A stretch of DNA of 64,000 bases from positions 49,116 to 113,115 of the IMG/VR virus record IMGVR_UViG_3300048629_000034. One strand, written 5' to 3'. This DNA is from a virus (taxonomy: Duplodnaviria > Caudoviricetes). The notes under the pieces are model-generated. The model searched no databases, had not been told where the DNA came from, and was given only the letters and a program-made list of their open reading frames with translations. Shown in pieces: positions 5,076-35,930 of this stretch; the stretch's first letter is position 1; every line of letters begins with the position of its first letter. Position numbers and translations under genes: made by a program.

Positions 5076-5336
5076 ACCGAAAGCTATAGCAAATATATAT
5101 TATAGCTTTTATTTCTTGTAAACTACCACAGTTAACATCTTTATAGCTAATAAATATAACAAAAAGAGGGTAAAAGTAACTGTATTTGCACAATTATATT
5201 CCAGTTACTTTTTATACAATTACAGAGGTACGCAGTTCCACTTGTAATACTATAGGGCACTGACTTTTTGGTAAGAACATGTTAACTGTGGTGGCTAGAG
5301 TACCGAAAGCTATAGCATGTTCCAATTATAGCTTTT
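5076..5336. repeat. operator-like repeat array upstream of ParB-like gene
   Basis: ACCGAAAGCTATAGCA-N9-TATAGCTTTT at 5076-5110 and 5302-5336; perfect 14-bp inverted repeat ACCACAGTTAACAT at 5125-5138 / 5279-5292. Confidence 0.75.
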
Positions 5337-5582
5337 GCAGGAATATAAATAGTATTATTTTATATTGCATGGAGTCAATAGTGTGCTCATCCGCTAACGC
5401 TACGAGCACATTCTCCATCACAAATAGGAGAGAAGGAAAATACATAAAACTAGCATAATTTCTTTCCTTCTAAAAAGGACAACCTCCACAGAGCCCATCT
5501 GATGGGGCCTACACGACTATCCACGACCAACTTTGCCACAACAACCTGGCCTATACAGACTCTATATAAAAGGAAGCACAAA

Positions 5583-6145: not shown

Positions 6146-6436
6146 ATGTTAGAAATAGGAATAGCAATAGCTGCAGGTATATATATCTGGATGAATCGTG
6201 AGAGAGTTAAAACTTACTCATCAACTCAAGAGGAAGCGTCTAAAGTGGCAGCAAAGAAAGCTGAAGTAGATATGCAAGAAGATCTAGCTGAGCTTGAAGA
6301 AGAAGTACTGGAGACAATCCAAAATAATAACGGTAAGTGGCATTCAGTTAAATCAATTGACAAACTAATTAGAGAAGCTAAGAAGAAAACACTAGCTGAC
6401 CTGCAACAAGTACCAACAAATACACCACCAGTGTAA
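6146..6436 (+). CDS. early membrane-anchored coiled-coil protein (C-terminus NTPPV)
   Basis: AAGGA RBS before ATG 6146; TM helix; paralog of 2794-3126. Confidence 0.8.
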   Translation: MLEIGIAIAAGIYIWMNRERVKTYSSTQEEASKVAAKKAEVDMQEDLAELEEEVLETIQNNNGKWHSVKSIDKLIREAKKKTLADLQQVPTNTPPV

Positions 6437-6551
6437 ATTCATAGAACCAATTATCAGTATTGGTTCTGTTGAGTTTATTATATATCGCATAGTAAACCAA
6501 ATCGTTTTATGTATCACAGATAGTGAGAACCAATCATCCAAAGGAAACAAA

Positions 6552-7217
6552 ATGAGTAAATTAACTAAAGAACAACTAATCGCACAAATCGCAGAAGCAG
6601 CTAAAACTAGAGCAATCGAAGCATCAGATAGAATTGAAGAGATCAAACTAACTAATGAATTAACATATATCCAGTCAGATAAATATCTAGATGATCAAGT
6701 TAAGTTAGCCGATGATAAAATTCTGCTGGCTATAACTAAGCCATTGAATGCAATCAGTGATCTATCTTTCACTAGATATAAAGAGTTTATGTTTGGTTCA
6801 CAACTTAATGAATTACTTGGAGCTATCAGAACTGTACAATTCCAGAAGAAAGAGGGCCATGTTCCACTAAATGAAGCTATCCTAACTTCTCCAGAGCTAG
6901 AGCAATTCATTAATATAATCGACCTGCATGGATCTGAATTACCTGAAGCTATGGGCAGACAGACTTACTTTGATAAGTTAACTGGAACTATTGTGTCTGG
7001 TACTATTGGTGATGCTGAGCAAGCAAGAGATATCTTATCTACAATATGTAGAGAACTTGGATTGTGTAATGTATCACTAAGCAAAGTGTCGCATGCGCAC
7101 TTTACATTATTAGAGGACAAAGCTGTAATAAGAGCAAATCAAATGCTGGAAGACAACCAATTATTATCTGGTGAAGCAGTATCAGCTTCTGAAGACATAG
7201 TATACCAAACAGCATAG
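6552..7217 (+). CDS. early hypothetical protein
   Basis: 221 aa, AAGGA RBS. Confidence 0.8.
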   Translation: MSKLTKEQLIAQIAEAAKTRAIEASDRIEEIKLTNELTYIQSDKYLDDQVKLADDKILLAITKPLNAISDLSFTRYKEFMFGSQLNELLGAIRTVQFQKKEGHVPLNEAILTSPELEQFINIIDLHGSELPEAMGRQTYFDKLTGTIVSGTIGDAEQARDILSTICRELGLCNVSLSKVSHAHFTLLEDKAVIRANQMLEDNQLLSGEAVSASEDIVYQTA

Positions 7218-12476: not shown

Positions 12477-12926
12477 ATGAATAGAGAATTAAAAGATCAA
12501 AGAACATATAAGATACTCATATTTAAGAAATTAATAGAGGATTTTATATCCCTAATTGATCCAGAAACCAAACACAAACTATATATAGAGTACACTAATG
12601 GTATTGATGAAAAAAACACAAACAATTTGTATGCACTGTCAAAGAAAATGAATTACCAAAACTGGTCTGAATATATACTATACTCAACCATGCTAGGTAG
12701 GATTTTAAATACAGAATTAACTCAATATCTACCTAAAGTTCTAACATTCGAGGAGATAGCACTACTCTGCAAGACTGGAACAAAGCAACGTGCAGAACAG
12801 TTAACAAAAGGTGCCATAGCGAAGATTAAACATAGTAAAAATTTTGACATATTATCGAATTTTAAATTGAGCTTTGAAACAAGGTACAATTGTGAACAGA
12901 TAAAAGACGTTGATGGCGAACATTAA
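12477..12926 (+). CDS. sigma70 region-4-like HTH protein
   Basis: LTFEEIA...TKQRAEQL..GAIAKIK resembles sigma region 4.2 (TLEEIG..TRERVRQIE..AL.KLR). Confidence 0.6.
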   Translation: MNRELKDQRTYKILIFKKLIEDFISLIDPETKHKLYIEYTNGIDEKNTNNLYALSKKMNYQNWSEYILYSTMLGRILNTELTQYLPKVLTFEEIALLCKTGTKQRAEQLTKGAIAKIKHSKNFDILSNFKLSFETRYNCEQIKDVDGEH

Positions 12927-13296
12927 CTAGTAGCGGGCGCAGTGGATATTACCCGACTATTAAACGTAATTTGTTTATTTTATTTTTCCAAAATATAGTA
13001 GATATGCGACAATTAATATCGACTACATTACAATTCTAATAGGCATTACAATTGTAAAACTCTCATGAACCAACAAAAAACTATAATAAGCAGTGTCTTT
13101 AGCTATTCAATACTTATTGTAGTTCTATTTTGGTTCATATTTTAAATACTCCATATAGACATGCACTCAATATCATACAAACATATAAAGGGGTGCCTTG
13201 TACTAAAATTGCTCCCTGATTTACTATCATAGAAATGCGCACTCTGATACGAGTGTATGTCTATATGGATCACTACAAATAACAAAGGAAATAAAA

Positions 13297-13821: not shown

Positions 13822-14198
13822 CAGATAGAGAATTAGCGTTCAAATGTAATTTAGATGGAAACTACTTTACTATAATGAAATATAGCAATATAAATAAGTA
13901 TAATTATTTTACAAACAGAGATAAAAATAAATACAACTCTGTGATTAAAGCATCAGAGCGAATTGAAATAATGTATCTAGCTGCAGAAAAACTATATTAT
14001 ATGTTCGATTCTGAATATAAATTATCAAAATGGATGCAAAAACACAATATAACTAACGGTTTCAATCATCAATCTGGAAACAGTTTAGGGTTAAGCATAT
14101 TTAGAGTAAAGGATGATGGTTACTTTTCTACAAAATATCCGTTTATTATGAAGCTTGAGAAGATATATAAAGCAATGGAAAGTGAAAATATGCTATAA
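13818..14198 (+). CDS. hypothetical protein, paralog of previous gene
   Basis: same shared motif as 13297-13821. Confidence 0.7.
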   Translation: MTDRELAFKCNLDGNYFTIMKYSNINKYNYFTNRDKNKYNSVIKASERIEIMYLAAEKLYYMFDSEYKLSKWMQKHNITNGFNHQSGNSLGLSIFRVKDDGYFSTKYPFIMKLEKIYKAMESENML

Positions 14199-14521
14199 TA
14201 AAGCAATTATACGCACACAAAGTATTCATATTATCAAGCTTATCGGTTTATCGAAAAAGTACGGCGTAGCATCTCCGTTAAGATGCTAAAATAATTAAAA
14301 TTATGATTTTTACGAATGGTAAAAACAAAATAATTAAAGTTCAACTTTTAAAGAATAAAGTTCAATGTTTAATGATCATAAGTTTATAATTTTAAAGAAT
14401 AAAGTTTAACCTCTGTATAAATCTGGAATAAATAGCATAAGGAATTACTTTTCCTAGATAAAGCTACCAGCAGATAAGTTTGATAATGTGAATACATAAC
14501 TACAAATTAAAAGGAATTAAA

Positions 14522-18945: not shown

Positions 18946-19713
18946 ATGAGAATTAAACAATTAGGGAATGGTGGAGGTTTAAATCCTCAACTGACAAACA
19001 GTAGCTTCTTAATAGAATATACATCAAATCAGTTTTTATTGTTTGATTGCGGATTCAATATTATGGATCGATTAATAAAATTAGAAGAAGACTCAGTTAA
19101 ACACGATGCATCATTCAGAATATCTAAAATAGATATAGTTTTTGTTAGTCATACAGATGATGATCATATAGGTAACTTACAAACATTGATCTACTGGAAT
19201 TATTTTAAGAACCAAAAGAAGATGGAAATCATTTCACACAATGAAGTATTTGATATTATTGATAAAATGAATACTATTAAAACAGCAGGTATTGTTGAAG
19301 ATTTTAAATACTTCATTAAAATAGATATTTCAAACAGAAAAGAAGTGTATTATAATCTTGTTTCTGACTCTATGCTTAAATTGACGTTCATTAAGGCATA
19401 CCACGGATCTAGAAAATGTTATGGATTACTTGCAATCAAAAGCAACAAAGCAATATATATATCAGGAGATACTGTAGCGCATCCTTCAATAGAGAATACA
19501 GTAACAAAAGAAATTAAGTTACAACAAAACATTTCCGGATCAAATCTAAACTCAATTATGTTTCATGATTATAGCCACTGGGATTGTCCAAGTAAAAATG
19601 TTCATGCTTGTAAAACAAACTTCGAGGAAGAATACAGTAAAGAATTTAGAGATAAATTAATCAAGTATCATACAGGTGAGGATGACTTCAATAAAGACTG
19701 GAGAATACTATAA
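18946..19713 (+). CDS. metallo-beta-lactamase-fold hydrolase (RNase Z / Apyc1-like)
   Basis: LG.GG, LLFDCG, SHTDDDHIG, AYHG, ISGDT, FHD, VHA, KYH motifs. Confidence 0.85.
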   Translation: MRIKQLGNGGGLNPQLTNSSFLIEYTSNQFLLFDCGFNIMDRLIKLEEDSVKHDASFRISKIDIVFVSHTDDDHIGNLQTLIYWNYFKNQKKMEIISHNEVFDIIDKMNTIKTAGIVEDFKYFIKIDISNRKEVYYNLVSDSMLKLTFIKAYHGSRKCYGLLAIKSNKAIYISGDTVAHPSIENTVTKEIKLQQNISGSNLNSIMFHDYSHWDCPSKNVHACKTNFEEEYSKEFRDKLIKYHTGEDDFNKDWRIL

Positions 19714-19988: not shown

Positions 19989-20483
19989 ATGGAAAAAACA
20001 TTCACAGCACAAGAGGTGCAAGCTATAGCTACACAAGCAGTTGAAAATCACGTATCAAACGGAGGAAACGGTATCGTTTCTAAAGCATTAGATGGTGTAA
20101 CAGCAACAGGAAGAGCAATCGCAGAGGAAACTCAAGCAAACGCTAAAAGAGAAGCTGGTAGAAGACTATACGATAACATTGAGGAGTTAATTAACAGCTA
20201 TATTCTATCTAAAATGAATTTCATGCAAAGATGGTTAACTTCGGATAAAACTAAAAGAATGGCAGTATTAGTTGGTACATATACAGTTATTCACGCTATT
20301 AAATCTGGTGGTTTCGGATTAACTAATTATAGAATAAATCACGCTATGTTAGATTTATTATCATCTGAATGTAATGCAAGAATCATGTCATCTGTACTAG
20401 GTGGATTTGACACAAATATTGCTAAAGCATTATTTACTAAACCTGAAGTTACTGAAGTAGTTTCAGAAGTAGCAGGAGCATAA
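19989..20483 (+). CDS. hypothetical protein
   Basis: 164 aa, GAGG RBS. Confidence 0.8.
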   Translation: MEKTFTAQEVQAIATQAVENHVSNGGNGIVSKALDGVTATGRAIAEETQANAKREAGRRLYDNIEELINSYILSKMNFMQRWLTSDKTKRMAVLVGTYTVIHAIKSGGFGLTNYRINHAMLDLLSSECNARIMSSVLGGFDTNIAKALFTKPEVTEVVSEVAGA

Positions 20484-20485
20484 TT

Positions 20486-20620
20486 ATGGCAGCACAATCA
20501 GTATCAGATGCTGTAGCTGCTGCATTAGCGGCTGCAGGTACAACAACTACATCAGGAACTACTCCTACAGTGACAACTACGGACTCAGAAACTCTATCTG
20601 TATCTAGTAAAGGTCAATAA
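20486..20620 (+). CDS. 44-aa peptide MAAQSVSDAVAAALAAAGTTTTSGTTPTVTTTDSETLSVSSKGQ, candidate minimal ubiquitin-like modifier
   Basis: AGGAG RBS at 20474-20478; ends KG-Q just upstream of E1/E2/JAB genes; below track cutoff. Confidence 0.7.
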   Translation: MAAQSVSDAVAAALAAAGTTTTSGTTPTVTTTDSETLSVSSKGQ

Positions 20621-20705: not shown

Positions 20706-21122
20706 ATGACAATAAACAAAGATTATATTTTAGACCTGCTTAATAATCCAGATAATGGAAACAGAGAGTACCAACTCATAGTATTCATTCTAAAAAGTGC
20801 TGACGAACTAGATAAACTTTATTCTAAACTATTTAGCTGTGTAAAAAGTTACGAAAGGCACAGAGCGGCAGACGTAGTATCATTCAAAAACTCATTAAAA
20901 CAACATGCAAAAAATAAAGAAGACTTCTGCTTGTTTATAAGGTTAACTTCGAACAACACTAAATTAGGCTCAATATCTCATAGTGACTTCGATTATTTCA
21001 ATAATCTCTGTGACAAAATTGATGGATATGTATATTATCAGGACTTAAAAACATTAATAATAAGAGACATACCTCGACTTCTACATGAACCAAATGCATT
21101 CATACTACATGATACTAACTAA
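20706..21122 (+). CDS. LHDTN-tail family protein 1
   Basis: ends NAFILHDTN; immediately upstream of E1. Confidence 0.85.
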   Translation: MTINKDYILDLLNNPDNGNREYQLIVFILKSADELDKLYSKLFSCVKSYERHRAADVVSFKNSLKQHAKNKEDFCLFIRLTSNNTKLGSISHSDFDYFNNLCDKIDGYVYYQDLKTLIIRDIPRLLHEPNAFILHDTN

Positions 21123-21152: not shown

Positions 21153-22157
21153 ATGACACAAGAAAACATAAACTTTAGCAAAAACTATTTAGCAGAACAA
21201 ATCAAATCACGATATGCTATGTTTCCACGAATTAGAGATGGTAAGTCTAATCTAATTATAGACTCTATAGCTCCACATTGGATATACAATAAATTAAAAC
21301 AAGAGCATCTAGATGATAATGGTAGAGCAACTATAGGCGATAAAAAACCTAAAACAGCATATGCTATATCAGCATACTTTGCAGATATCTTTAGAGTACC
21401 TAAAGTGCCACTAGCTGATCTACTTGACATACTTGGATATAAACCAAAAGAAATAAATTCTCTTCTATACAAAGTTGCAAAGAAGAAACATGATATTTGT
21501 TTAGTTGGATATGGTGGATCTGGACAAAACTTCACTTACTGGCTAACTGAAATGGCTGGATTACTTGGTAAACAGAATTTATTTGAATCATTAACTATAT
21601 ATGAGAAAGAACATGTTGAGTATTCAAACATCCTTAGATTTCCAAAAAATGTATTAAATCACAAAAATGGAACTACTCACAAACTTCATACAATGACAAA
21701 TGAAGGAATATTGGCTAGAGCAACAAATTTAATTCCAGATTATATAGACCAAGAAGGCGTAGACAAATTATTAGAGGATAAACCAAACACTATATTCTAT
21801 GGTGGTGGATCTATACCTACTATGGAAATGTTGTCTAACTACAATTTTGTATCTGCAACTCATGGAAACAATGACTGTACTTTAATTGTTAAGCCAGTAC
21901 AGGACAGTAGAATTCAAATCGAATCTTATGGAGTAATTATGCTATCTTCATTCTTTATGAACCAACTTAGAATGACTATAGGTTTTCTTGAGTTCTTGGC
22001 TCAGGATGATATTGATTGGACTCAAAGAGTATATCTTGACTATAACTTTACTACAGCAGAAACTAGAAGAGATAAGCACAAATATAACTGGCAACTAGAA
22101 CATAGTCAAACAATTGGACTAGAAGAAAATGACGAAGGAGACACTAATGTTAACTAA
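21153..22157 (+). CDS. E1/ThiF-family adenylyltransferase (ubiquitin-activating-like)
   Basis: ICLVGYGGSG (GxGGxG), YEKEHVEYSNILR (D.D.VE.SNL.R equivalent), downstream conserved Lys. Confidence 0.8.
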   Translation: MTQENINFSKNYLAEQIKSRYAMFPRIRDGKSNLIIDSIAPHWIYNKLKQEHLDDNGRATIGDKKPKTAYAISAYFADIFRVPKVPLADLLDILGYKPKEINSLLYKVAKKKHDICLVGYGGSGQNFTYWLTEMAGLLGKQNLFESLTIYEKEHVEYSNILRFPKNVLNHKNGTTHKLHTMTNEGILARATNLIPDYIDQEGVDKLLEDKPNTIFYGGGSIPTMEMLSNYNFVSATHGNNDCTLIVKPVQDSRIQIESYGVIMLSSFFMNQLRMTIGFLEFLAQDDIDWTQRVYLDYNFTTAETRRDKHKYNWQLEHSQTIGLEENDEGDTNVN

Positions 22158-23568
22158 TGACAAAAAATTAGAACAACTATTATTTGAAGAGGAAGCTGGT
22201 AATTTCTATGATATCTATTCTAAAGAGGAAAATGTAGGAGAAGATGATATAGACAAGAATCTTCATAATAATTGCGAGATAATATTTACAACAAAGTATA
22301 ACATACAGCAAACTCAAGACTTACTTACAGCAGGTAAATTTATTATGGATATAGATCCATTAATGGATAATTATAGCAATGAATATTTTAGTGATATTAC
22401 CTCGAAACTTGATGGAGACGATTTTTTAAATAATATTCTTAGGACCTCAGTTGAAATTGAAGGACAATATTCTTTTGCAGATGCAATAAATATTATAGCA
22501 AATGTAAAAATACAAATGGGTGATGAGTTTTATGGTGCATTGTTAATAGAACCAAATAAACAATACACATTTAATCCTCTACATCATTTAGTAGCGGTTG
22601 AGTATCTAAAGCACAGAGATGATAATGACACATTTAATGTATTTATATTTAGCAATTCTAATGTAGACAAATTTAATCTTGAAGACAATGCTAAGGAAAG
22701 AGCAAAAAACAATATCATTAATCAATTGGGAATGTATGCAATCAGAGGAATTGTTAAAAGCAGAAGAATTATTGACGAGTCAAGACAATCATTTATTGAT
22801 AATGTACTTGAAAATGATAAACACGTGCTTAAAACAAAAATATCTTATTCTGCAGAGAGAAATGACAATGGAGACGAAATATATGTAGTGCCACAACAAC
22901 TTCTAACGAGTGGCTTAGCAATACCGTATTATGGAACAACATTGTACAAAGTAACAACAAATTCATCAGGAGACAGAAGTTCGTATGGTTCACACATTAC
23001 ACCAATGCTTGGAGTAAATACAGCATCTGGATGGTCAGGGAGAAAAGTAGATCATGCAAAAGATATTACTTTTGACTCTGTTTGTACAGGAAACGAAGTT
23101 TCAACAACTATCAAAGGAATTTTAACGCATAATCATTCTAATCTTTCATCTCCATATTTTAGTAATTGTGTAATGGAAGGGTGGCATGAATTATCGCAGG
23201 AGGCAATAAATACATCACTAATGATATATAAGGATCTTCTTAACAAGGATACATGTAACAAGCTTGGATTTGATTGTGATGAGGCTCATAAATTAAACAC
23301 AAGCAGCGACAATACTGACAAAGCGGAAAATGAAAAGTTAATTGAATCATGGTCAAGCTGTCCATTTAATGACATATCATCTTCAGAGCCGTGTCCAGCA
23401 CTGGTATCTTTAAAAGAATATACAGATTACTTGATTGGAGATTCACTATCTAATTTAACAGCTGGAGAAATATTACTTAGATACAGAGAAGCAAATAAAT
23501 ACCTATCTGGAATCGATACAGACTACACAACGCCAGATGGTGCTAAATGCGAACCATGTACAGAATAA
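22147..23568 (+). CDS. protein with C-terminal-half prokaryotic E2-like domain
   Basis: HITPM.GVN...SVCTGN...NHSNLSSPY matches the E2 pattern P..N..xC.G and N..SP; located between E1 and JAB; start moved to ATG 22147 (AAGGAG RBS). Confidence 0.6.
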   Translation: MLTNDKKLEQLLFEEEAGNFYDIYSKEENVGEDDIDKNLHNNCEIIFTTKYNIQQTQDLLTAGKFIMDIDPLMDNYSNEYFSDITSKLDGDDFLNNILRTSVEIEGQYSFADAINIIANVKIQMGDEFYGALLIEPNKQYTFNPLHHLVAVEYLKHRDDNDTFNVFIFSNSNVDKFNLEDNAKERAKNNIINQLGMYAIRGIVKSRRIIDESRQSFIDNVLENDKHVLKTKISYSAERNDNGDEIYVVPQQLLTSGLAIPYYGTTLYKVTTNSSGDRSSYGSHITPMLGVNTASGWSGRKVDHAKDITFDSVCTGNEVSTTIKGILTHNHSNLSSPYFSNCVMEGWHELSQEAINTSLMIYKDLLNKDTCNKLGFDCDEAHKLNTSSDNTDKAENEKLIESWSSCPFNDISSSEPCPALVSLKEYTDYLIGDSLSNLTAGEILLRYREANKYLSGIDTDYTTPDGAKCEPCTE

Positions 23569-23584
23569 AAAAAAAGGAATACAA

Positions 23585-24814
23585 ATGAAAAAACAAACAT
23601 ATAGACAACCTAAGCCGCAAGCCCAATTTGACTATCTAACTAGACAATTTAAAACTAGACAAAAAGATTTAATTAAGGATAATAAATCAACAAATAACTA
23701 TGGTATATTATTATTGAACCAACAAAACCTGGACAACATCAGACATAAATCAGAGGTAAATATTACAACTCATGATGAATATGGATTTCATTACAGAGCT
23801 TTAGTAGCTAGAGTTGTAACTGGATCGGGGAATACATCTGAGTTTCTTGACATTTGTATTCCAACTGTATATTATAATTACAAACAAGAAGTGTCTGGAG
23901 GAGAAGTTGAATTTCATTTAGCGGATGTTGAAGCAGCGGCAAACGAAGTAAAACCTCTATCAGATATGATGGTTAACAAACTATTTGAATCTGACATTTC
24001 ACTGGGGACTAGACTTAATAATCTATTTAATGAATTGAAGATAAAAGCAGAGTATTTCGATGTAGGGGTTAACTCTATTCATATGCATCCAGCAGGACTA
24101 CATAGATTCTCTGGTGGAGACCTTGACACTGATCATACTAATCCTGGAATTTGTTTTCCTCTTAGTAAAGCAGAAAAAGAAACTAATTTTGCATCTATTG
24201 TAACTAGACGAGGTAAAGGAGTTATTCTTGGACATACTGAATATAGAATTGCAGATGGCGATGTATCTACAAATGAACCAATCAATTACTATCACGGTAA
24301 ATCAATTACTTTAGTAAAAGGATATGCTCCAACAGACGATAGAACTACTATGCAAAAGTTACTTGGATTTAAAGTAGATGAACCAATTAAATCATATACT
24401 GTATCTGACGGTTTAGACTTGTCTGACTTTGCAAACAAAGTAAATGAACTATTCAATGAGTCTGATTATGTTGCATTTGATGATACTGTAATTTCAGATA
24501 ATGTATCTAAATATGTATACAAACCAAAGCCAGTAGCAAAAAAGAAACCAGCAATTGCAGCTTCTAAGCAAAAAACTATTACAGCCAAACATGTAGAACT
24601 AAAGATAGTATATACAGATAAAACCACTGGAGATAAATATACTCAAGATGATATTGATGACATAATTGAAGAACTAATGTATTCGAGTACTGGAGTAAGC
24701 AAAGCAGAACTTATGCAACTAGAATACAAAGAGCTAGTAGATAGATATGAAGAATATATTATGAGACCAGGAAGCTACTCTTTTGGAGGATTTGGGTATG
24801 ATTATGACTATTAA
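23585..24814 (+). CDS. JAB/MPN+ metallo-isopeptidase
   Basis: HDEYG (catalytic E), QEVSGGEV, SIHMHP..HRFSGGD (HxH..S..D); start moved to ATG 23585. Confidence 0.8.
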   Translation: MKKQTYRQPKPQAQFDYLTRQFKTRQKDLIKDNKSTNNYGILLLNQQNLDNIRHKSEVNITTHDEYGFHYRALVARVVTGSGNTSEFLDICIPTVYYNYKQEVSGGEVEFHLADVEAAANEVKPLSDMMVNKLFESDISLGTRLNNLFNELKIKAEYFDVGVNSIHMHPAGLHRFSGGDLDTDHTNPGICFPLSKAEKETNFASIVTRRGKGVILGHTEYRIADGDVSTNEPINYYHGKSITLVKGYAPTDDRTTMQKLLGFKVDEPIKSYTVSDGLDLSDFANKVNELFNESDYVAFDDTVISDNVSKYVYKPKPVAKKKPAIAASKQKTITAKHVELKIVYTDKTTGDKYTQDDIDDIIEELMYSSTGVSKAELMQLEYKELVDRYEEYIMRPGSYSFGGFGYDYDY

Positions 24815-26976: not shown

Positions 26977-27369
26977 ATGAGTATAAAAAGACAAAATAAC
27001 AAAACATTTATTTGTGAGATAGGGATGGAACTAAATAGACTTCCAAGGAATGGATATTTACTTATGCAAGCTTCCAATAATAATGAATGGCTACAACTTA
27101 CTAGCACTTTACGTGAAAATCATAAATATTTAGGCGTGCCACTGTCTAAAGAAATGCTAAATTTATTTGAGGACACAAGAAATAAAGACTTTTTTATGTT
27201 ATGTATTCAAAAAAATCAACACCACGAATTAAAGTTATCATTAGTATCTAAACTTTACGTAAACAGTTTAAGTTTTAAAAAAATGAATTATATATATAAG
27301 ATATTTGACATTTCTACATTCTTTAAAAAAACAACAACAAATCAATTCATACTACACGACACTAATTAA
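26977..27369 (+). CDS. LHDTN-tail family protein 2
   Basis: ends NQFILHDTN. Confidence 0.85.
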   Translation: MSIKRQNNKTFICEIGMELNRLPRNGYLLMQASNNNEWLQLTSTLRENHKYLGVPLSKEMLNLFEDTRNKDFFMLCIQKNQHHELKLSLVSKLYVNSLSFKKMNYIYKIFDISTFFKKTTTNQFILHDTN

Positions 27370-27388: not shown

Positions 27389-27730
27389 ATGCTAAGAAAA
27401 ATATCAGAATGCAAAATACTAAGCGAACTTGAAAAAGTAATTGACAACAACAGAAGAGTTGTAATACTAGCTGATAATAAAGAAGAGTGGGATGATATTT
27501 TACGGTTTATATTTTCTCAACAAAAGTATGAATTAACAGCATCAACTTCTAAATTAGACACTTGGTTGCCATATTATGTAAAGTATAAAAGAGACGCAAT
27601 AGTAATCACAAGGTTAAACGACACATTGAGACTTACTCACACAGAGCGTATATATGCCAAAGAAAGCTCTGATATTATAATAAGCATAAACAGAAGAGAT
27701 AACCAATTCATACTGCACGACACAAATTAA
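27389..27730 (+). CDS. LHDTN-tail family protein 3
   Basis: ends NQFILHDTN. Confidence 0.85.
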   Translation: MLRKISECKILSELEKVIDNNRRVVILADNKEEWDDILRFIFSQQKYELTASTSKLDTWLPYYVKYKRDAIVITRLNDTLRLTHTERIYAKESSDIIISINRRDNQFILHDTN

Positions 27731-27739
27731 GGACATTAT

Positions 27740-28076
27740 ATGCTAGACAAATCATCGCAATATAAAATATTAAATGAGCTAAAGCAAGTTATAAATGACG
27801 ACGAAATAGTAATCATATATACAAGGAGCAAAGAAGAAATGGGAAGAAGCCATAAAATTTATATATTCTCAGCAAAAATATAGTTTTTATAAAACGGGTT
27901 CACTATTAGAATGGATAAGTTATTATAATGTAAAAAGTAGTTTTTGTATATTCTTGTACAGAAAAAACGAAAAACAATTCTATATAAAACATGGAGTCCT
28001 TAAGTATAAAACGAAATATAATACGATAATTAAAGTAAACAAAAACAGTAATTTTATCTTACATGACACAAACTAA
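27740..28076 (+). pseudogene. LHDTN-tail family protein 4, frameshifted by one extra A at about 27837-27839
   Basis: removing one A gives a 111-aa ORF MLDKSSQYKILNELKQVI..KEEWEEAIKFIYSQQKY..SNFILHDTN, a close paralog of 27389-27730. Confidence 0.8.
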
Positions 28077-29691: not shown

Positions 29692-30096
29692 ATGGATAAG
29701 CTTCTATTGCATAACCAAAACTGGAACAACATAGAAAAACTAGCAGTAAAAGAAAACGACAAATTAATAATATTCATAAATATAAATAATTTAAATACAT
29801 TTAATACAATAACGGATCTATTCGGAAGACAAATAGGATCGATGGATGATATGCGTTATTATTTTACTGAAGATAAACAATACGTATCTTTGTATTTACA
29901 CAAAGATCGCAATGGAGATCCCTCTCAAGGATGGACAGGTACTAAAGAGATAGATCTACATGCGGATATTATAAAGGTATTAAACAATGAGTTCTATTCA
30001 AACATTTATCCAGCAGCCATAAAATGCATTATTGACGCTAGGCATATATCAAATATAAATACAGACCAGAGGATAATTTTACATGACACAAATTAA
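29692..30096 (+). CDS. LHDTN-tail family protein 5
   Basis: ends QRIILHDTN. Confidence 0.85.
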   Translation: MDKLLLHNQNWNNIEKLAVKENDKLIIFININNLNTFNTITDLFGRQIGSMDDMRYYFTEDKQYVSLYLHKDRNGDPSQGWTGTKEIDLHADIIKVLNNEFYSNIYPAAIKCIIDARHISNINTDQRIILHDTN

Positions 30097-30457
30097 CGAA
30101 AAAGCATTAGCTAATTTTCTTAAATATCAAGCAGATGGAGACAACATAGACAAAGATGTAATTATTGTTGAATCTATTGATGAATGGAATAAGATATTTG
30201 AATGTCTATATAAATATAAAATATACGGACAGAGATCTGGTCTGTCGTTAAAAGAATGGGAAAGTGTATATAGAAGATGCAATAATAATAATGGGGATTA
30301 TGCGCTAAGGTTAGCTAGTGAAATAAACCTAAATCATTCAAGTTCTGATTGGATGATAGCGAACTACATTGAAGACACAAACGGCAAAGCAATACATTTC
30401 AAGGATATACCTGGAGTACACAGATTGAATCAATTTATTCTGTACGATACAAATTAA
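30083..30457 (+). CDS. LHDTN-tail family protein 6
   Basis: ends NQFILYDTN. Confidence 0.85.
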   Translation: MTQINEKALANFLKYQADGDNIDKDVIIVESIDEWNKIFECLYKYKIYGQRSGLSLKEWESVYRRCNNNNGDYALRLASEINLNHSSSDWMIANYIEDTNGKAIHFKDIPGVHRLNQFILYDTN

Positions 30458-30476
30458 TACACAAGGAGGCGCTATA

Positions 30477-30872
30477 GTGAAAGATATTAATTCAATAAAT
30501 AATATTGACGAACAACAATTAAGTGGCTTAATGAAAGAATTAAAGTCAAACACCAATAATAGCTTTGATGCTCTATTTATATATAATATTAAAGATTCAG
30601 ATAGTTTTCATGATATTATGAAGTTGTGGGGAAGAGGAGACATTTGTGGAAAAGATCACATTGGATATCCTCGGGCATTAAGTCTCGAACAGGATGGAAC
30701 ACAAGGATGGGAAGAACAATTTAAATATAGCATTACTACGAATGATCAGATATTACGTCAAGCTGAAGTTTTTTATATTAAATGGAAAAAAATGTATTCG
30801 CTAGACTACAATACGCTATTAGATGGCAAAAATAATAATCTAAATCAATTTACATTATACGATACAAACTAA
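30477..30872 (+). CDS. LHDTN-tail family protein 7
   Basis: GTG start, AGGAGG RBS; ends NQFTLYDTN. Confidence 0.85.
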   Translation: MKDINSINNIDEQQLSGLMKELKSNTNNSFDALFIYNIKDSDSFHDIMKLWGRGDICGKDHIGYPRALSLEQDGTQGWEEQFKYSITTNDQILRQAEVFYIKWKKMYSLDYNTLLDGKNNNLNQFTLYDTN

Positions 30873-32723: not shown

Positions 32724-33182
32724 ATGAGAGAAATAAATTTTTTATTACAAATAAACGACATGGATCCATCAGGACAAATAAGAAGAATCTCTAGAGAAAT
32801 AGAATGTGATAATTACGACAAAATGTCAGTACCAAGATATGTTGATTTCTTCAAAAACGAAATAAAAAAAGCATTAAATATTAAACTAGCTCCAAAGTTA
32901 TTTAGTGACAAAACACATCGTAAGTTCACTATAAAGACAAAAGATCTATTTATAAACCATGCTAATATATCAAGAGATCCATATGCCATGAACAATGAAA
33001 TATGGGCAGCAATGACTTTATTTATAGAAGATGATAGAGATAACCCTCATATCGATAGTTTAAATTATTACAAATCACATAATAGTGATGATGCAGTTCA
33101 ATTGTTGTATAAAGCAATAGCAAGAAACACAGATACTACAGAAACTATTACAGATAGGATAATTTTACATGACACAAACTAG
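32724..33182 (+). CDS. LHDTN-tail family protein 8
   Basis: ends DRIILHDTN. Confidence 0.85.
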   Translation: MREINFLLQINDMDPSGQIRRISREIECDNYDKMSVPRYVDFFKNEIKKALNIKLAPKLFSDKTHRKFTIKTKDLFINHANISRDPYAMNNEIWAAMTLFIEDDRDNPHIDSLNYYKSHNSDDAVQLLYKAIARNTDTTETITDRIILHDTN

Positions 33183-33540
33183 AATTATAGACACTAATAA
33201 ACTAATAAATTACATAAATAATAAAGCAAGCAATAAGCATGAGTGCATAATCAAAGTAAATTCTAATGATCACTGGATCAGATTAATTTTCTCAATATTT
33301 GATAATGGTAGTGATATTGGTTTATCACATAGAAATTCTAGTAGAAACCTATGGGCCACTTACTTTAGTAAAGAATCTCATACAAATAATTGCATATATT
33401 TATTTATTGACAAAAGTAAGTGGCTTTCGTATTCAGAAGAAGGTTTCATAAATGAGCACAATTTAAACGATCATGTAGTTGATTTTAAATACTTTCTAGT
33501 TGAAGACAAACCTAACTTCAAATTACATGATACAAACTAA
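33169..33540 (+). CDS. LHDTN-tail family protein 9
   Basis: ends PNFKLHDTN. Confidence 0.85.
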   Translation: MTQTRIIDTNKLINYINNKASNKHECIIKVNSNDHWIRLIFSIFDNGSDIGLSHRNSSRNLWATYFSKESHTNNCIYLFIDKSKWLSYSEEGFINEHNLNDHVVDFKYFLVEDKPNFKLHDTN

Positions 33541-33551
33541 AAGGATACAAC

Positions 33552-33926
33552 ATGACAGAAAGAGAAATTCTACTTAAATTCGTAAAGAATGAACTAAAGA
33601 AGAATATATCAGATAGAAAAGTAATTATTTGCGAATCATTCATTGAATATTCAAACTTTCTTCATTGGACGGATGCACATAAAGTAATAACAAATATAAA
33701 TGACTCAAGAAATGATATGGATGAATGGATAGCGGAATTTGAATTCTACAAAGACACAGGAAAGATAGTAATCTTTTTAGAACTAAATGACTCTATAGCT
33801 ATAGACAGTATGAAGTATTTAGAAATGTGCGACCAATACGATGACAGAAGGACAATATATTCTGAAATAATTTCATCATGCAACAAGGAAAACAAAGATA
33901 TGTTTATATTACACGACACAAATTAA
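33552..33926 (+). CDS. LHDTN-tail family protein 10
   Basis: ends DMFILHDTN. Confidence 0.85.
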   Translation: MTEREILLKFVKNELKKNISDRKVIICESFIEYSNFLHWTDAHKVITNINDSRNDMDEWIAEFEFYKDTGKIVIFLELNDSIAIDSMKYLEMCDQYDDRRTIYSEIISSCNKENKDMFILHDTN

Positions 33927-34982: not shown

Positions 34983-35930
34983 ATGTTGCAAACAGCAAAT
35001 GATGCACCAAACTTTACAATAGTGTTGCCAGTTGATTGTCAGGCAGATTGTGTATTTTGCTCATGGAGAACTAGCAATCAGGACAAACAGAAAATGGACG
35101 ATGATAAATTTTTCAAAGCAATTATTCATACATTGAATAATTTGCCATCTAATTGTACAGAATTAACAATTAGTGGGGGAGAACCAACAACATATCCATA
35201 TTTAGAGCAAGTATTAAAACTAATACAACTACATAAGAAAGAGAACATTAAAAAAGTAGTATTTACTACAAATGGACAGAATCTATATTCCTGGGCTAAG
35301 GACAGTCTATTTTTAGATGTAGTGGATTATGTAAACATAAGCAGACATCACTATATCCAAGAAGACAACGACAGAATAATGAGAATACGAACTATAAATT
35401 GGAATACTATATGTTCAGTATCGGATAGATTATCTAAAGCTGGAATTAGAACCAATATCAATTGTATATTAAGTACATCTGTAATGAAAGAATACGATTA
35501 TGAATTTTTAGCTTGTTTCATAGATTATGCTAGAAATCATAGTATTAATTCTATAACATTTAGAAAAGATTATGATGATGGATTCGGAATGCATTATCTG
35601 GAACAGGAAATACAAGAAACATATAAACCATTGCATATTGGAGAATGCCCTGTATGTAGAAAATCTAAATACCTTATTAATGGTATGGAAGTATTATTTA
35701 CTACATCAGAATTTGAACCAACAGCATACTATGGATCACAATCTATATATGAATTTATACTTCAACCTAACGGAAATCTAACATCAGATTGGGAAGGAAA
35801 TAGTACAGTTGAGCTAGATACGAAACCTAAACTTAAACAATGTACTGATAATACTTCTAATCTGAATCTAACTTCTAGAGGATATTTAGCAGGCTCTGGT
35901 AGAGGATGTGGAAGCAGTGGATGTAGATAA
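34983..35930 (+). CDS. radical SAM enzyme
   Basis: CQADCVFC (CxxxCxxC), ISGGEPT, TTNG, NISRH; extra CPVC and C-terminal GCGSSGC. Confidence 0.9.
   Translation: MLQTANDAPNFTIVLPVDCQADCVFCSWRTSNQDKQKMDDDKFFKAIIHTLNNLPSNCTELTISGGEPTTYPYLEQVLKLIQLHKKENIKKVVFTTNGQNLYSWAKDSLFLDVVDYVNISRHHYIQEDNDRIMRIRTINWNTICSVSDRLSKAGIRTNINCILSTSVMKEYDYEFLACFIDYARNHSINSITFRKDYDDGFGMHYLEQEIQETYKPLHIGECPVCRKSKYLINGMEVLFTTSEFEPTAYYGSQSIYEFILQPNGNLTSDWEGNSTVELDTKPKLKQCTDNTSNLNLTSRGYLAGSGRGCGSSGCR

Follow-up and report, generated by a model that had tools for sequence, protein, structure and literature searches.

How might an E1-like enzyme act without the cysteine on which E1 chemistry usually relies, and which C-terminus would it act on? 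The question is raised by a gene at positions 21153–22157 (+ strand) of a 64,000-nucleotide window, which represents bases 49116–113115 of a 113,115-bp phage-like contig with a GC content of ~32% (IMG/VR record IMGVR_UViG_3300048629_000034). A sequence-only reading of this window had noted that the 334-residue product, referred to here as E1, seems to lack the usual thioester cysteine, and had proposed that it may act in the manner of MccB on small proteins of the same genome that end in asparagine. Our analysis bears out the missing cysteine and the asparagine tails, and places E1 in a conserved phage cassette with a candidate substrate of its own, a micro-peptide with a C-terminal glycine motif.

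E1 itself gave no sequence match in Pfam, PHROG, PADLOC or the PDB (phmmer). An exhaustive HMMER search recovered at least 302 cluster representatives (50% identity) at E ≤ 1e-3, 143 of them at E ≤ 1e-30, and the family is therefore large. Similarity to known enzymes became detectable through these relatives: the Pfam ThiF profile weakly matched 12 of 41 (best E 4.2e-5), and a local hhalign comparison of the E1 family with Escherichia coli MoeB plus ThiF returned a probability of 72% and an E of 3.4e-5. A profile search of the PDB with E1 gave rows that were all non-significant, with MccB as the sole E1 among them (E 0.73). The fold is clear from an AlphaFold2 (AF2) model built with nine homologues (predicted local distance difference test [pLDDT] 76.7, predicted TM-score [pTM] 0.81), in which residues ~97–304 match E1/ThiF adenylation domains by VIA. 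The best VIA match was Cap2 (7to3_A; Z 13.0, root-mean-square deviation 3.7, 182 aligned residues), and Uba1, UBA6, a BilD-type E1, MoeB, ThiF, AclA, UBA5 and MccB scored at Z 10.8–11.7. Foldseek ranked MccB first (3h5a; E 2.6e-5, low TM) and returned fifty matches at E ≤ 1e-3; among the matches listed, all belonged to the E1/ThiF superfamily. VIA ranks MccB (Z 11.0) no closer than other E1s and aligns its adenylation domain alone, with model residues 96/97 to 300/304 on MccB residues 93/94 to 328/331 and residues 1–96 outside the alignment. Based on the model, the open reading frame (ORF) is predicted to encode a deeply diverged nucleotide-binding enzyme of the ThiF/E1 superfamily.

For residue mapping, E. 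coli MoeB, ThiF and a plasmid MccB were added to the E1 family alignment (MAFFT), and conservation was counted over 154 family representatives. The MccB reference (plasmid locus L018) was identified by mccA (MRTGNAN-stop) directly upstream of its gene and by MFS, methyltransferase, GNAT and S66 genes downstream. Most of the ATP site is conserved. The nucleotide loop G119-x-G-G-x-x-x-N126 (21507–21530, + strand) aligns with the GxGGxG loop of MoeB, ThiF and MccB, and G119, G121, G122 and N126 are invariant or nearly so, as is K177 (21681–21683), the counterpart of MoeB K86. The segment SNILRFP (21624–21644, + strand) corresponds to the ThiF motif SNLxRQ, with N159 and R162 equivalent to MoeB N70 and R73; these two residues, together with G217, H237, E257, Y259 and G260, are invariant in all 154 sequences. 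Residues R20 and Y21 represent the RY of the RYxRQ motif, kept in 141–149 members. The site departs from canonical enzymes at YGGGSIPTM (21798–21824, + strand), the lineage form of a family motif, YGAPDIxTR, that by alignment sits where canonical E1s have the Mg-binding aspartate and the DNxxxR helix. As judged from alignment alone (MAFFT and hhalign), the Mg-binding aspartate (MoeB D130, ThiF D127) falls on Tyr216 or Phe215. Asp220 of the motif is found in 67 family members and is a serine in the window E1. Arg224, equivalent to MoeB R138, is present in 152 of the 154 sequences and replaced by methionine in the window and by alanine in its closest relative, locus L001 (E1 63% identical). The same two enzymes carry Gly–Gly in place of A218–P219, which is Ala–Pro in all others.

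The region where the catalytic cysteine usually sits had been read as IQIESYG, and the MoeB/ThiF alignment confirms this as the crossover loop, with the motif Q255-I-E-S-Y-G260 (21915–21932, + strand) at the canonical thioester position. MoeB C187 and ThiF C184 align on Ile256, which is Val, Ile or Thr across the family; Y259 follows three residues past this position, and loop residues 252–259 have low pLDDT in the model. The only two cysteines of E1 are, as first noted, C116 (in DICL, on strand β1 immediately ahead of the GxGG loop) and C242 (in NDCT). The latter aligns with a glycine at the start of a β-strand, which is not a catalytic position. C242 is a cysteine in 120 of the family members and an alanine in 21, C116 is a cysteine in 13, and nine members have no cysteine anywhere in the adenylation domain, insertions included. 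A cysteine occurs in the crossover-loop segment of two sequences, in neither case at the ThiF position, and the alignment shows that the Zn-binding CxxC insert is absent from the family. With Val, Ile or Thr at the catalytic position and nine members devoid of cysteine in the domain, the family as a whole cannot depend on an E1 thioester. The absence first noticed in one enzyme thus extends to all its relatives, and family-wide comparison indicates that E1 belongs to a large, previously unannotated phage family that works without this intermediate.

Residues 1–96 of E1 (21153–21440) include an insertion of ~75 residues between the RY helix and the Rossmann core that is absent from MoeB and ThiF. 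Its residues D37, P66 and S73 are invariant, and many relatives carry a further 100–400 variable N-terminal residues. The insertion may be a peptide- or partner-binding module. At its other end E1 terminates in G-D-T-N-V-N-stop (22137–22157), which includes the letters DTN; this is not kept in L001 and is probably a coincidence.

We compared 13 distinct loci (the window, L001, L003, L005–L008 and L010–L015), whose E1 enzymes are 30–63% identical to that of the window. All have a common cassette order, consisting of a micro-peptide of 38–50 residues, E1, a second conserved protein termed p479 and a JAMM peptidase; at every locus E1 is followed by the p479 homologue and then by a homologue of the 425-residue JAMM protein (L014 ends inside p479). 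In each of the 13 the micro-ORF lies upstream of E1, has a Shine–Dalgarno site and is coupled translationally to the preceding gene. In the window it is located at 20486–20620 (+ strand) and encodes a 44-residue peptide ending SSKG-Q, the candidate E1 substrate, coupled to p164 (19989–20483, + strand). The micro-peptides align across the loci, with an Ala-rich N-terminal helix, a Ser/Thr-rich middle and, in 12 of the 13, a C-terminus of the form (K/S)(S/T/A)G followed by 1–8 variable residues. A glycine with a short disposable tail, encoded beside a JAMM protein and an E1, classically marks a modifier or carrier whose activation at the glycine follows a trimming step.

The 425-residue protein (23537–24814, + strand) is a predicted JAMM/MPN+ metallopeptidase with the full JAMM signature: E81, H182-x-H184 and S192xxD195 are invariant in 11 aligned homologues. 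It has no Pfam match, and Atlas gave weak Prok-JAB leads. Between it and E1 lies the gene for p479 (22129–23568, + strand), a protein with invariant C319, H336, N338, S341 and P342. C319 precedes the invariant H336-x-N338, whereas in UBC/E2 enzymes the catalytic cysteine comes after the HPN-like motif. The p479 model has a pLDDT of 72; its best VIA score overall, Z 5.0, covers a small C-terminal helical bundle only, and among E2 structures the highest score is Z 3.5, for 3bzh. Foldseek returned nothing below E 0.2 for this model and Atlas nothing usable. As the E2 of the system p479 is putative at most: it offers an invariant cysteine, Cys319, but no recognisable fold.

Upstream of the micro-ORF, p164 homologues are found in L001 (69% identity) and L003 (47%). 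The gene at this position encodes a DUF7566 protein in L014 and an 80–107-residue protein in most other loci. Several of these proteins share a K-Y-I-I-x-V-N-G segment (L005:8179–8502, L006:6586–6873, L007:7488–7745, L011:6525–6770 and L015:6831–7070). A likeness to ThiS/MoaD, seen by eye in the VNG residues, is not claimed here: Pfam ThiS was matched by one of eight, at E 0.11.

The asparagine-ended proteins are real and numerous. A six-frame search of the 113,115-bp genome for L[HY]DTN found ten occurrences, each directly followed by a stop codon and all on the + strand between 20.7 and 33.9 kb of the window. Among these tails every one of the codons for L, H, D, T and N varies at its third position while the residues remain constant, and the protein bodies, with tails removed, have no significant pairwise similarity; the tail is carried by at least two body types. 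Because it always ends at a stop codon, varies synonymously and is attached to bodies without significant similarity, the tail is a peptide motif under selection, neither a DNA motif nor a product of chance. A function at the DNA level, as promoter, terminator or recombination site, was rejected, the variation being 3-nt periodic at synonymous positions and the downstream DNA not conserved; a promoter/terminator scan gave values equal to those of its shuffles. Recent duplication was also rejected as the origin of the tails, given bodies without significant similarity.

The first tail gene encodes a 138-residue protein ending FILHDTN-stop and is located between the micro-ORF and E1 (20706–21122, + strand), at a site that is gene-free in the other 12 loci. 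The remaining ones follow the cassette on the same strand: genes at 26977–27369 and 27389–27730 with a split paralogue (27740–27883 and 27954–28076), three between a Dda-like and a superfamily 2 (SF2) helicase (29692–30872; RIILHDTN, QFILYDTN and QFTLYDTN) and three after the SF2 helicase (32724–33926; RIILHDTN, NFKLHDTN and MFILHDTN). The split paralogue (27740–28076) is made up of a 47-residue piece 41% identical to the N-terminus of a 113-residue tail protein (E 3e-7) and a 40-residue piece that carries NFILHDTN in a different frame, and is a pseudogene or a frameshifted gene. At 30083–30096 and 33169–33182 the start codon of a tail gene (MTQ...) is found, in another frame, within the stretch that encodes RIILHDTN at the end of its predecessor.

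In L001, five small proteins encoded around the cassette end F-x-L-[A/T/E]-Q-T-N-stop, and 14 tails from the window genome and L001 have Leu(−5), Thr(−2) and Asn(−1) without exception. Since the tails are uniform within each genome and differ between them (HDTN vs AQTN), one partner per genome is suggested. When 5.8 billion proteins were searched with a profile, the tail family appeared in the window genome and L001 only, and none of the 11 more distant loci encodes a TN-tailed protein within 6–10 kb. At L015, whose E1 is 42% identical, five small proteins encoded near the cassette and otherwise unrelated (L015:3582–3845, 5198–5500, 6367–6654, 12820–13128 and 14184–14507) have a basic tail, N-[P/T]-R-R-Q-R-[P/S/K]-[K/G]-[R/K]-K, at or near the C-terminus. 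Since this tail, as in NPRRQRPKRK, is unrelated to those above, the sharing of a tail among small accessory genes recurs in this phage group independently of asparagine. These comparisons lead us to view the L[H/Y]DTN proteins as probably a separate, lineage-restricted family of small accessory early proteins with a selected C-terminal tag.

The account that we favour, and give slightly better than an even chance, is that after trimming by the JAMM protein the thioester-free E1 activates the micro-peptide at its C-terminal glycine. We infer the following steps from the conserved cassette. The JAMM peptidase would remove the 1–8 residues after the (K/S)xG of the micro-peptide, and E1 would adenylate the glycine thus exposed. 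The acyl-adenylate would then be resolved without an E1 cysteine, possibly through an oxyester on the invariant Tyr259 (with Glu257), as in the bacterial enzyme BubCD, or by a nucleophile of p479 that attacks it directly, or within the same molecule, as in the ThiF-like enzymes that modify ribosomally synthesised and post-translationally modified peptides (RiPPs). The glycine peptide, and not the asparagine tails, is the likely substrate because the micro-peptide cassette is kept in 13 loci and TN tails occur in two. On this account the 138-residue tail gene would merely sit between the micro-ORF and E1.

Several observations weigh against activation of the glycine peptide. The micro-peptide is not a β-grasp ubiquitin-like (Ubl) protein, and that of L001 has a serine in place of the conserved glycine. 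No E2 fold is recognisable in p479 by VIA or Foldseek. Even adenylation is not assured, because the position of MoeB D130 is taken by Tyr216 and Asp220 is present in fewer than half of the enzymes (67/154). The loss of Arg224 and the Gly–Gly replacement are, moreover, confined to the two genomes with TN tails. Given these changes in E1 and the Gly-to-Ser change in the L001 micro-peptide, a changed C-terminal specificity in the lineage of the window and L001 is conceivable; it could equally be that the altered E1 pocket tracks the altered micro-peptide.

Such a change is what the asparagine-based proposal would build on. It holds that in this lineage E1 activates the C-terminal asparagine of proteins ending Phi-x-L-x-[D/Q]-T-N, either by an MccB-like route from acyl-adenylate through succinimide to an N–P adenylate or by a non-glycine conjugation handed to the p479 cysteine. 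We hold this to be very unlikely, and grant as little to the associated notion of an E1 retuned beside its active site for which the tag on 80–150-residue proteins is a portable ‘activate me’ signal. The strict conservation of Leu(−5), Thr(−2) and Asn in 14 tail proteins, with synonymous codon variation in the window, speaks for it, as does the interleaving of tail genes with the cassette (one inside it in the window; three upstream and two downstream in L001), although nine of the ten window tail genes lie 5–12 kb away among helicase genes. That the only two of 154 E1s without Arg224, with Gly–Gly alongside, come from the two TN-tail genomes is weakly compatible with it; the aligned MccB also lacks an arginine at the MoeB R138 position, the L001 micro-peptide has lost its glycine, and the HDTN and AQTN forms, uniform per genome, are as expected from co-evolution with one genome-encoded partner. 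However, the window and L001 are mutually closest, and because they are sister lineages these co-occurrences amount to one evolutionary event. Eleven loci without TN tails retain the cassette together with its Gly-tailed peptide, the L015 tail family is basic and unrelated to asparagine, and VIA of the whole model gave no clamp-like match for E1 residues 1–96. A complex prediction with two copies of E1, two of ATP and the last 40 residues of the tail family scored 0.00 (mark 0.32) and counts neither way. Thus the asparagine ends that had been proposed as substrates are genuine, and their role as such is not borne out: only their nearness to E1 in two sister genomes connects them with it, and the cassette is present in all 13. 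The likeness to MccB survives in the Cys-less E1/ThiF fold and in a peptide gene upstream, as in mccA–mccB; asparagine chemistry finds no support in the adjacent peptide, which is Gly-tailed. A peptide gene upstream of such an enzyme is compatible with a RiPP-like pathway, which we consider unlikely and yet the most credible of the alternatives. The micro-peptide would be a precursor with a helical leader and a C-terminal core, a ThiF-like enzyme would activate its C-terminus for cyclisation or nucleotide attachment, the JAMM protein would remove leader or follower, and the product would be a small molecule, not a protein tag. A short peptide gene upstream of a Cys-less ThiF-like enzyme with ~96 extra N-terminal residues, MccB as the top Foldseek match and conservation of both the N-terminal helix and the C-terminal motif of the micro-peptide agree with this. 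Against it, VIA of the whole E1 model gave no match of the RiPP recognition element (RRE) type for the N-terminal region, many family members have long variable N-terminal extensions in place of a compact RRE, Pfam identified no exporter or immunity genes, and a JAMM protein together with a glycine and trimmable tail is the hallmark of Ubl-type systems.

The departures from the canonical ATP site raise the further question of whether E1 adenylates anything. It might be an ATP-binding, non-adenylating scaffold, comparable to the E1-like part of cyclodehydratases or the inactive domains of Uba1, with p479 and the JAMM protein doing the chemistry. The family-wide replacement of the Mg-binding aspartate by Tyr216, the poor conservation of Asp220 and the lack of Arg224 in the window enzyme would fit a pseudo-enzyme. 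Inactive E1 domains, however, normally lose ATP-site residues, and here N159, R162, K177 and the nucleotide loop show little or no variation and RY is kept in 141–149 of the 154 sequences; we regard a mere scaffold as distinctly unlikely. An active enzyme could alternatively serve a sulfur carrier, with the JAMM protein exposing the micro-peptide glycine, E1 adenylating it, and a thiocarboxylate being formed as on ThiS, MoaD, CysO and QbsE, the sulfur being destined for modification of nucleic acids or a cofactor. MoeB/ThiF-type E1s need no thioester, and JAMM trimming of sulfur carriers is known from CysO/Mec+ and QbsE/QbsD. A gene link between JAB and ThiS/MoaD has been described (PMC1779556). 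The cassette also lies among genes of nucleotide metabolism and replication (ThyX in relatives, helicases, and the possible radical-SAM gene at 34983–35930 described below). Nevertheless, no β-grasp carrier, rhodanese, cysteine desulfurase or recognisable sulfurtransferase was found, the family lacks the Zn-binding CxxC of MoeB and ThiF, and we rate this as the least probable of the explanations considered.

The + strand carries genes from ~6 to 58 kb of the window. Around E1 the order is an Apyc1-like metallo-β-lactamase (MBL) hydrolase, p164, the 44-residue micro-ORF, the 138-residue LHDTN protein, E1, p479 and the 425-residue protein; downstream follow a PD-(D/E)XK nuclease and then the Dda-like and SF2 helicases, with further small genes among them. 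The product of 18946–19713 has the MBL fold and weakly matches Apyc1, an anti-Pycsar protein, and its L001 and L002 homologues are listed with PF23023; this protein upstream of the cassette suggests an anti-defence neighbourhood. After the last tail genes, a 315-residue ORF (34983–35930) contains a CxxxCxxC segment (C-Q-A-D-C-V-F-C) as typical of radical-SAM enzymes. The phage itself is remote from cultured ones: the cassette and E1 as queries gave no blastn or tblastn match among 50,697 phage records, and the SF2 helicase is below 28% identity to that of any cultured phage. Pfam, PHROGs and PADLOC searches with E1, p479, the JAMM protein, p164 and the tail proteins returned nothing significant, and literature searches did not find this phage cassette described.

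To our knowledge, the characterised bacterial ubiquitin-like conjugation systems (type II cyclic oligonucleotide-based antiphage signalling system [CBASS], Bil and Bub) are all encoded by hosts, mostly with links to defence. In the present case a large family of at least 302 clusters, invisible to Pfam, PHROGs and PADLOC, lies inside phage genomes, where a Cys-less E1-like enzyme is coupled to a JAMM protein, a protein with an invariant cysteine and a Gly-tailed micro-peptide. Should the cassette prove to conjugate, it would represent tagging or counter-defence on the side of the phage, with the smallest known modifier, and thioester-free E1 chemistry would have a second, independent case besides Bub. 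The L[H/Y]DTN and xQTN tails are of interest in their own right: they offer a clean case of strong selection acting on a portable C-terminal tag shared by small phage proteins that are otherwise unrelated, and identification of their receptor would account for an entire block of orphan early genes. Were the tails E1 substrates after all, they would represent MccB-like or non-glycine ubiquitin-like chemistry on full-length proteins.

Among known enzymes, MoeB and ThiF resemble the phage E1 as minimal E1 domains in which GxGG, SNLxR, the lysine and RY can be aligned and adenylation needs no thioester. They differ in the Mg-binding aspartate (Tyr216 in the phage family), in the Zn-binding CxxC pairs and in the ThiF Cys184 position, none of which the phage family retains, and the latter has the ~75-residue insertion after the RY helix and no link to ThiS/MoaD-type carriers. 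MccB, PaaA and GrcB are Cys-less ThiF-like enzymes that act on an adjacent small peptide; RiPP enzymes of this kind use an RRE, and MccB requires a C-terminal asparagine on its substrate, a formylated peptide of seven residues that an N-terminal clamp keeps in place (PMC12250964). The phage enzyme shares with MccB, PaaA, GrcB and EnfB the Cys-less ThiF fold, ~90–100 extra N-terminal residues and a position immediately downstream of a short peptide gene. Unlike the MccB substrate, its adjacent peptide ends in glycine and a variable tail at 12 of the 13 loci, not in asparagine; the alignment shows neither the Mg-binding aspartate nor the CxxC Zn site, and a JAMM protein and p479 are found instead of mccC–F-type genes. 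Type II CBASS, whose Cap2 is the best structural match, likewise combines an E1 that acts on a non-Ubl C-terminus with a JAMM partner, Cap3, whereas Cap2 has catalytic cysteines, a fused recognisable E2 and a cGAS/DncV-like nucleotidyltransferase (CD-NTase) as substrate; neither a CD-NTase nor an E2 domain is recognised in the phage cassette.

The Bub (bacterial ubiquitination-like, ‘6E’) pathway provides a parallel to the proposed chemistry. Its E1, BubCD, is homodimeric and has no crossover-loop cysteine; the sole invariant residue of the loop, Tyr370, is essential, the reaction passes through oxyesters on Tyr and Ser, and maturation of the Ubl falls to a JAMM domain (PMC11601596). The two systems are not the same. 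JAMM is fused to E1 in Bub and is a separate 425-residue protein in the phage, the Bub modifier is a β-grasp Ubl whereas the phage candidate is a low-complexity peptide of ~40 residues, and the E2 of Bub uses catalytic Ser/His whereas p479 has an invariant cysteine and no recognisable E2 fold. The DUF6527 protease BubE is absent from the phage cassette (no Pfam match on any cassette protein), and Bub lies in defence islands whereas the cassette is phage-encoded. By analogy, nonetheless, both would pair a JAMM protein with a second protein that carries the next nucleophile, putatively p479 in the phage, and with an E1 fold whose Cys-free crossover loop presents an invariant tyrosine, Y370 in BubCD and Y259 in every one of the 154 phage enzymes.

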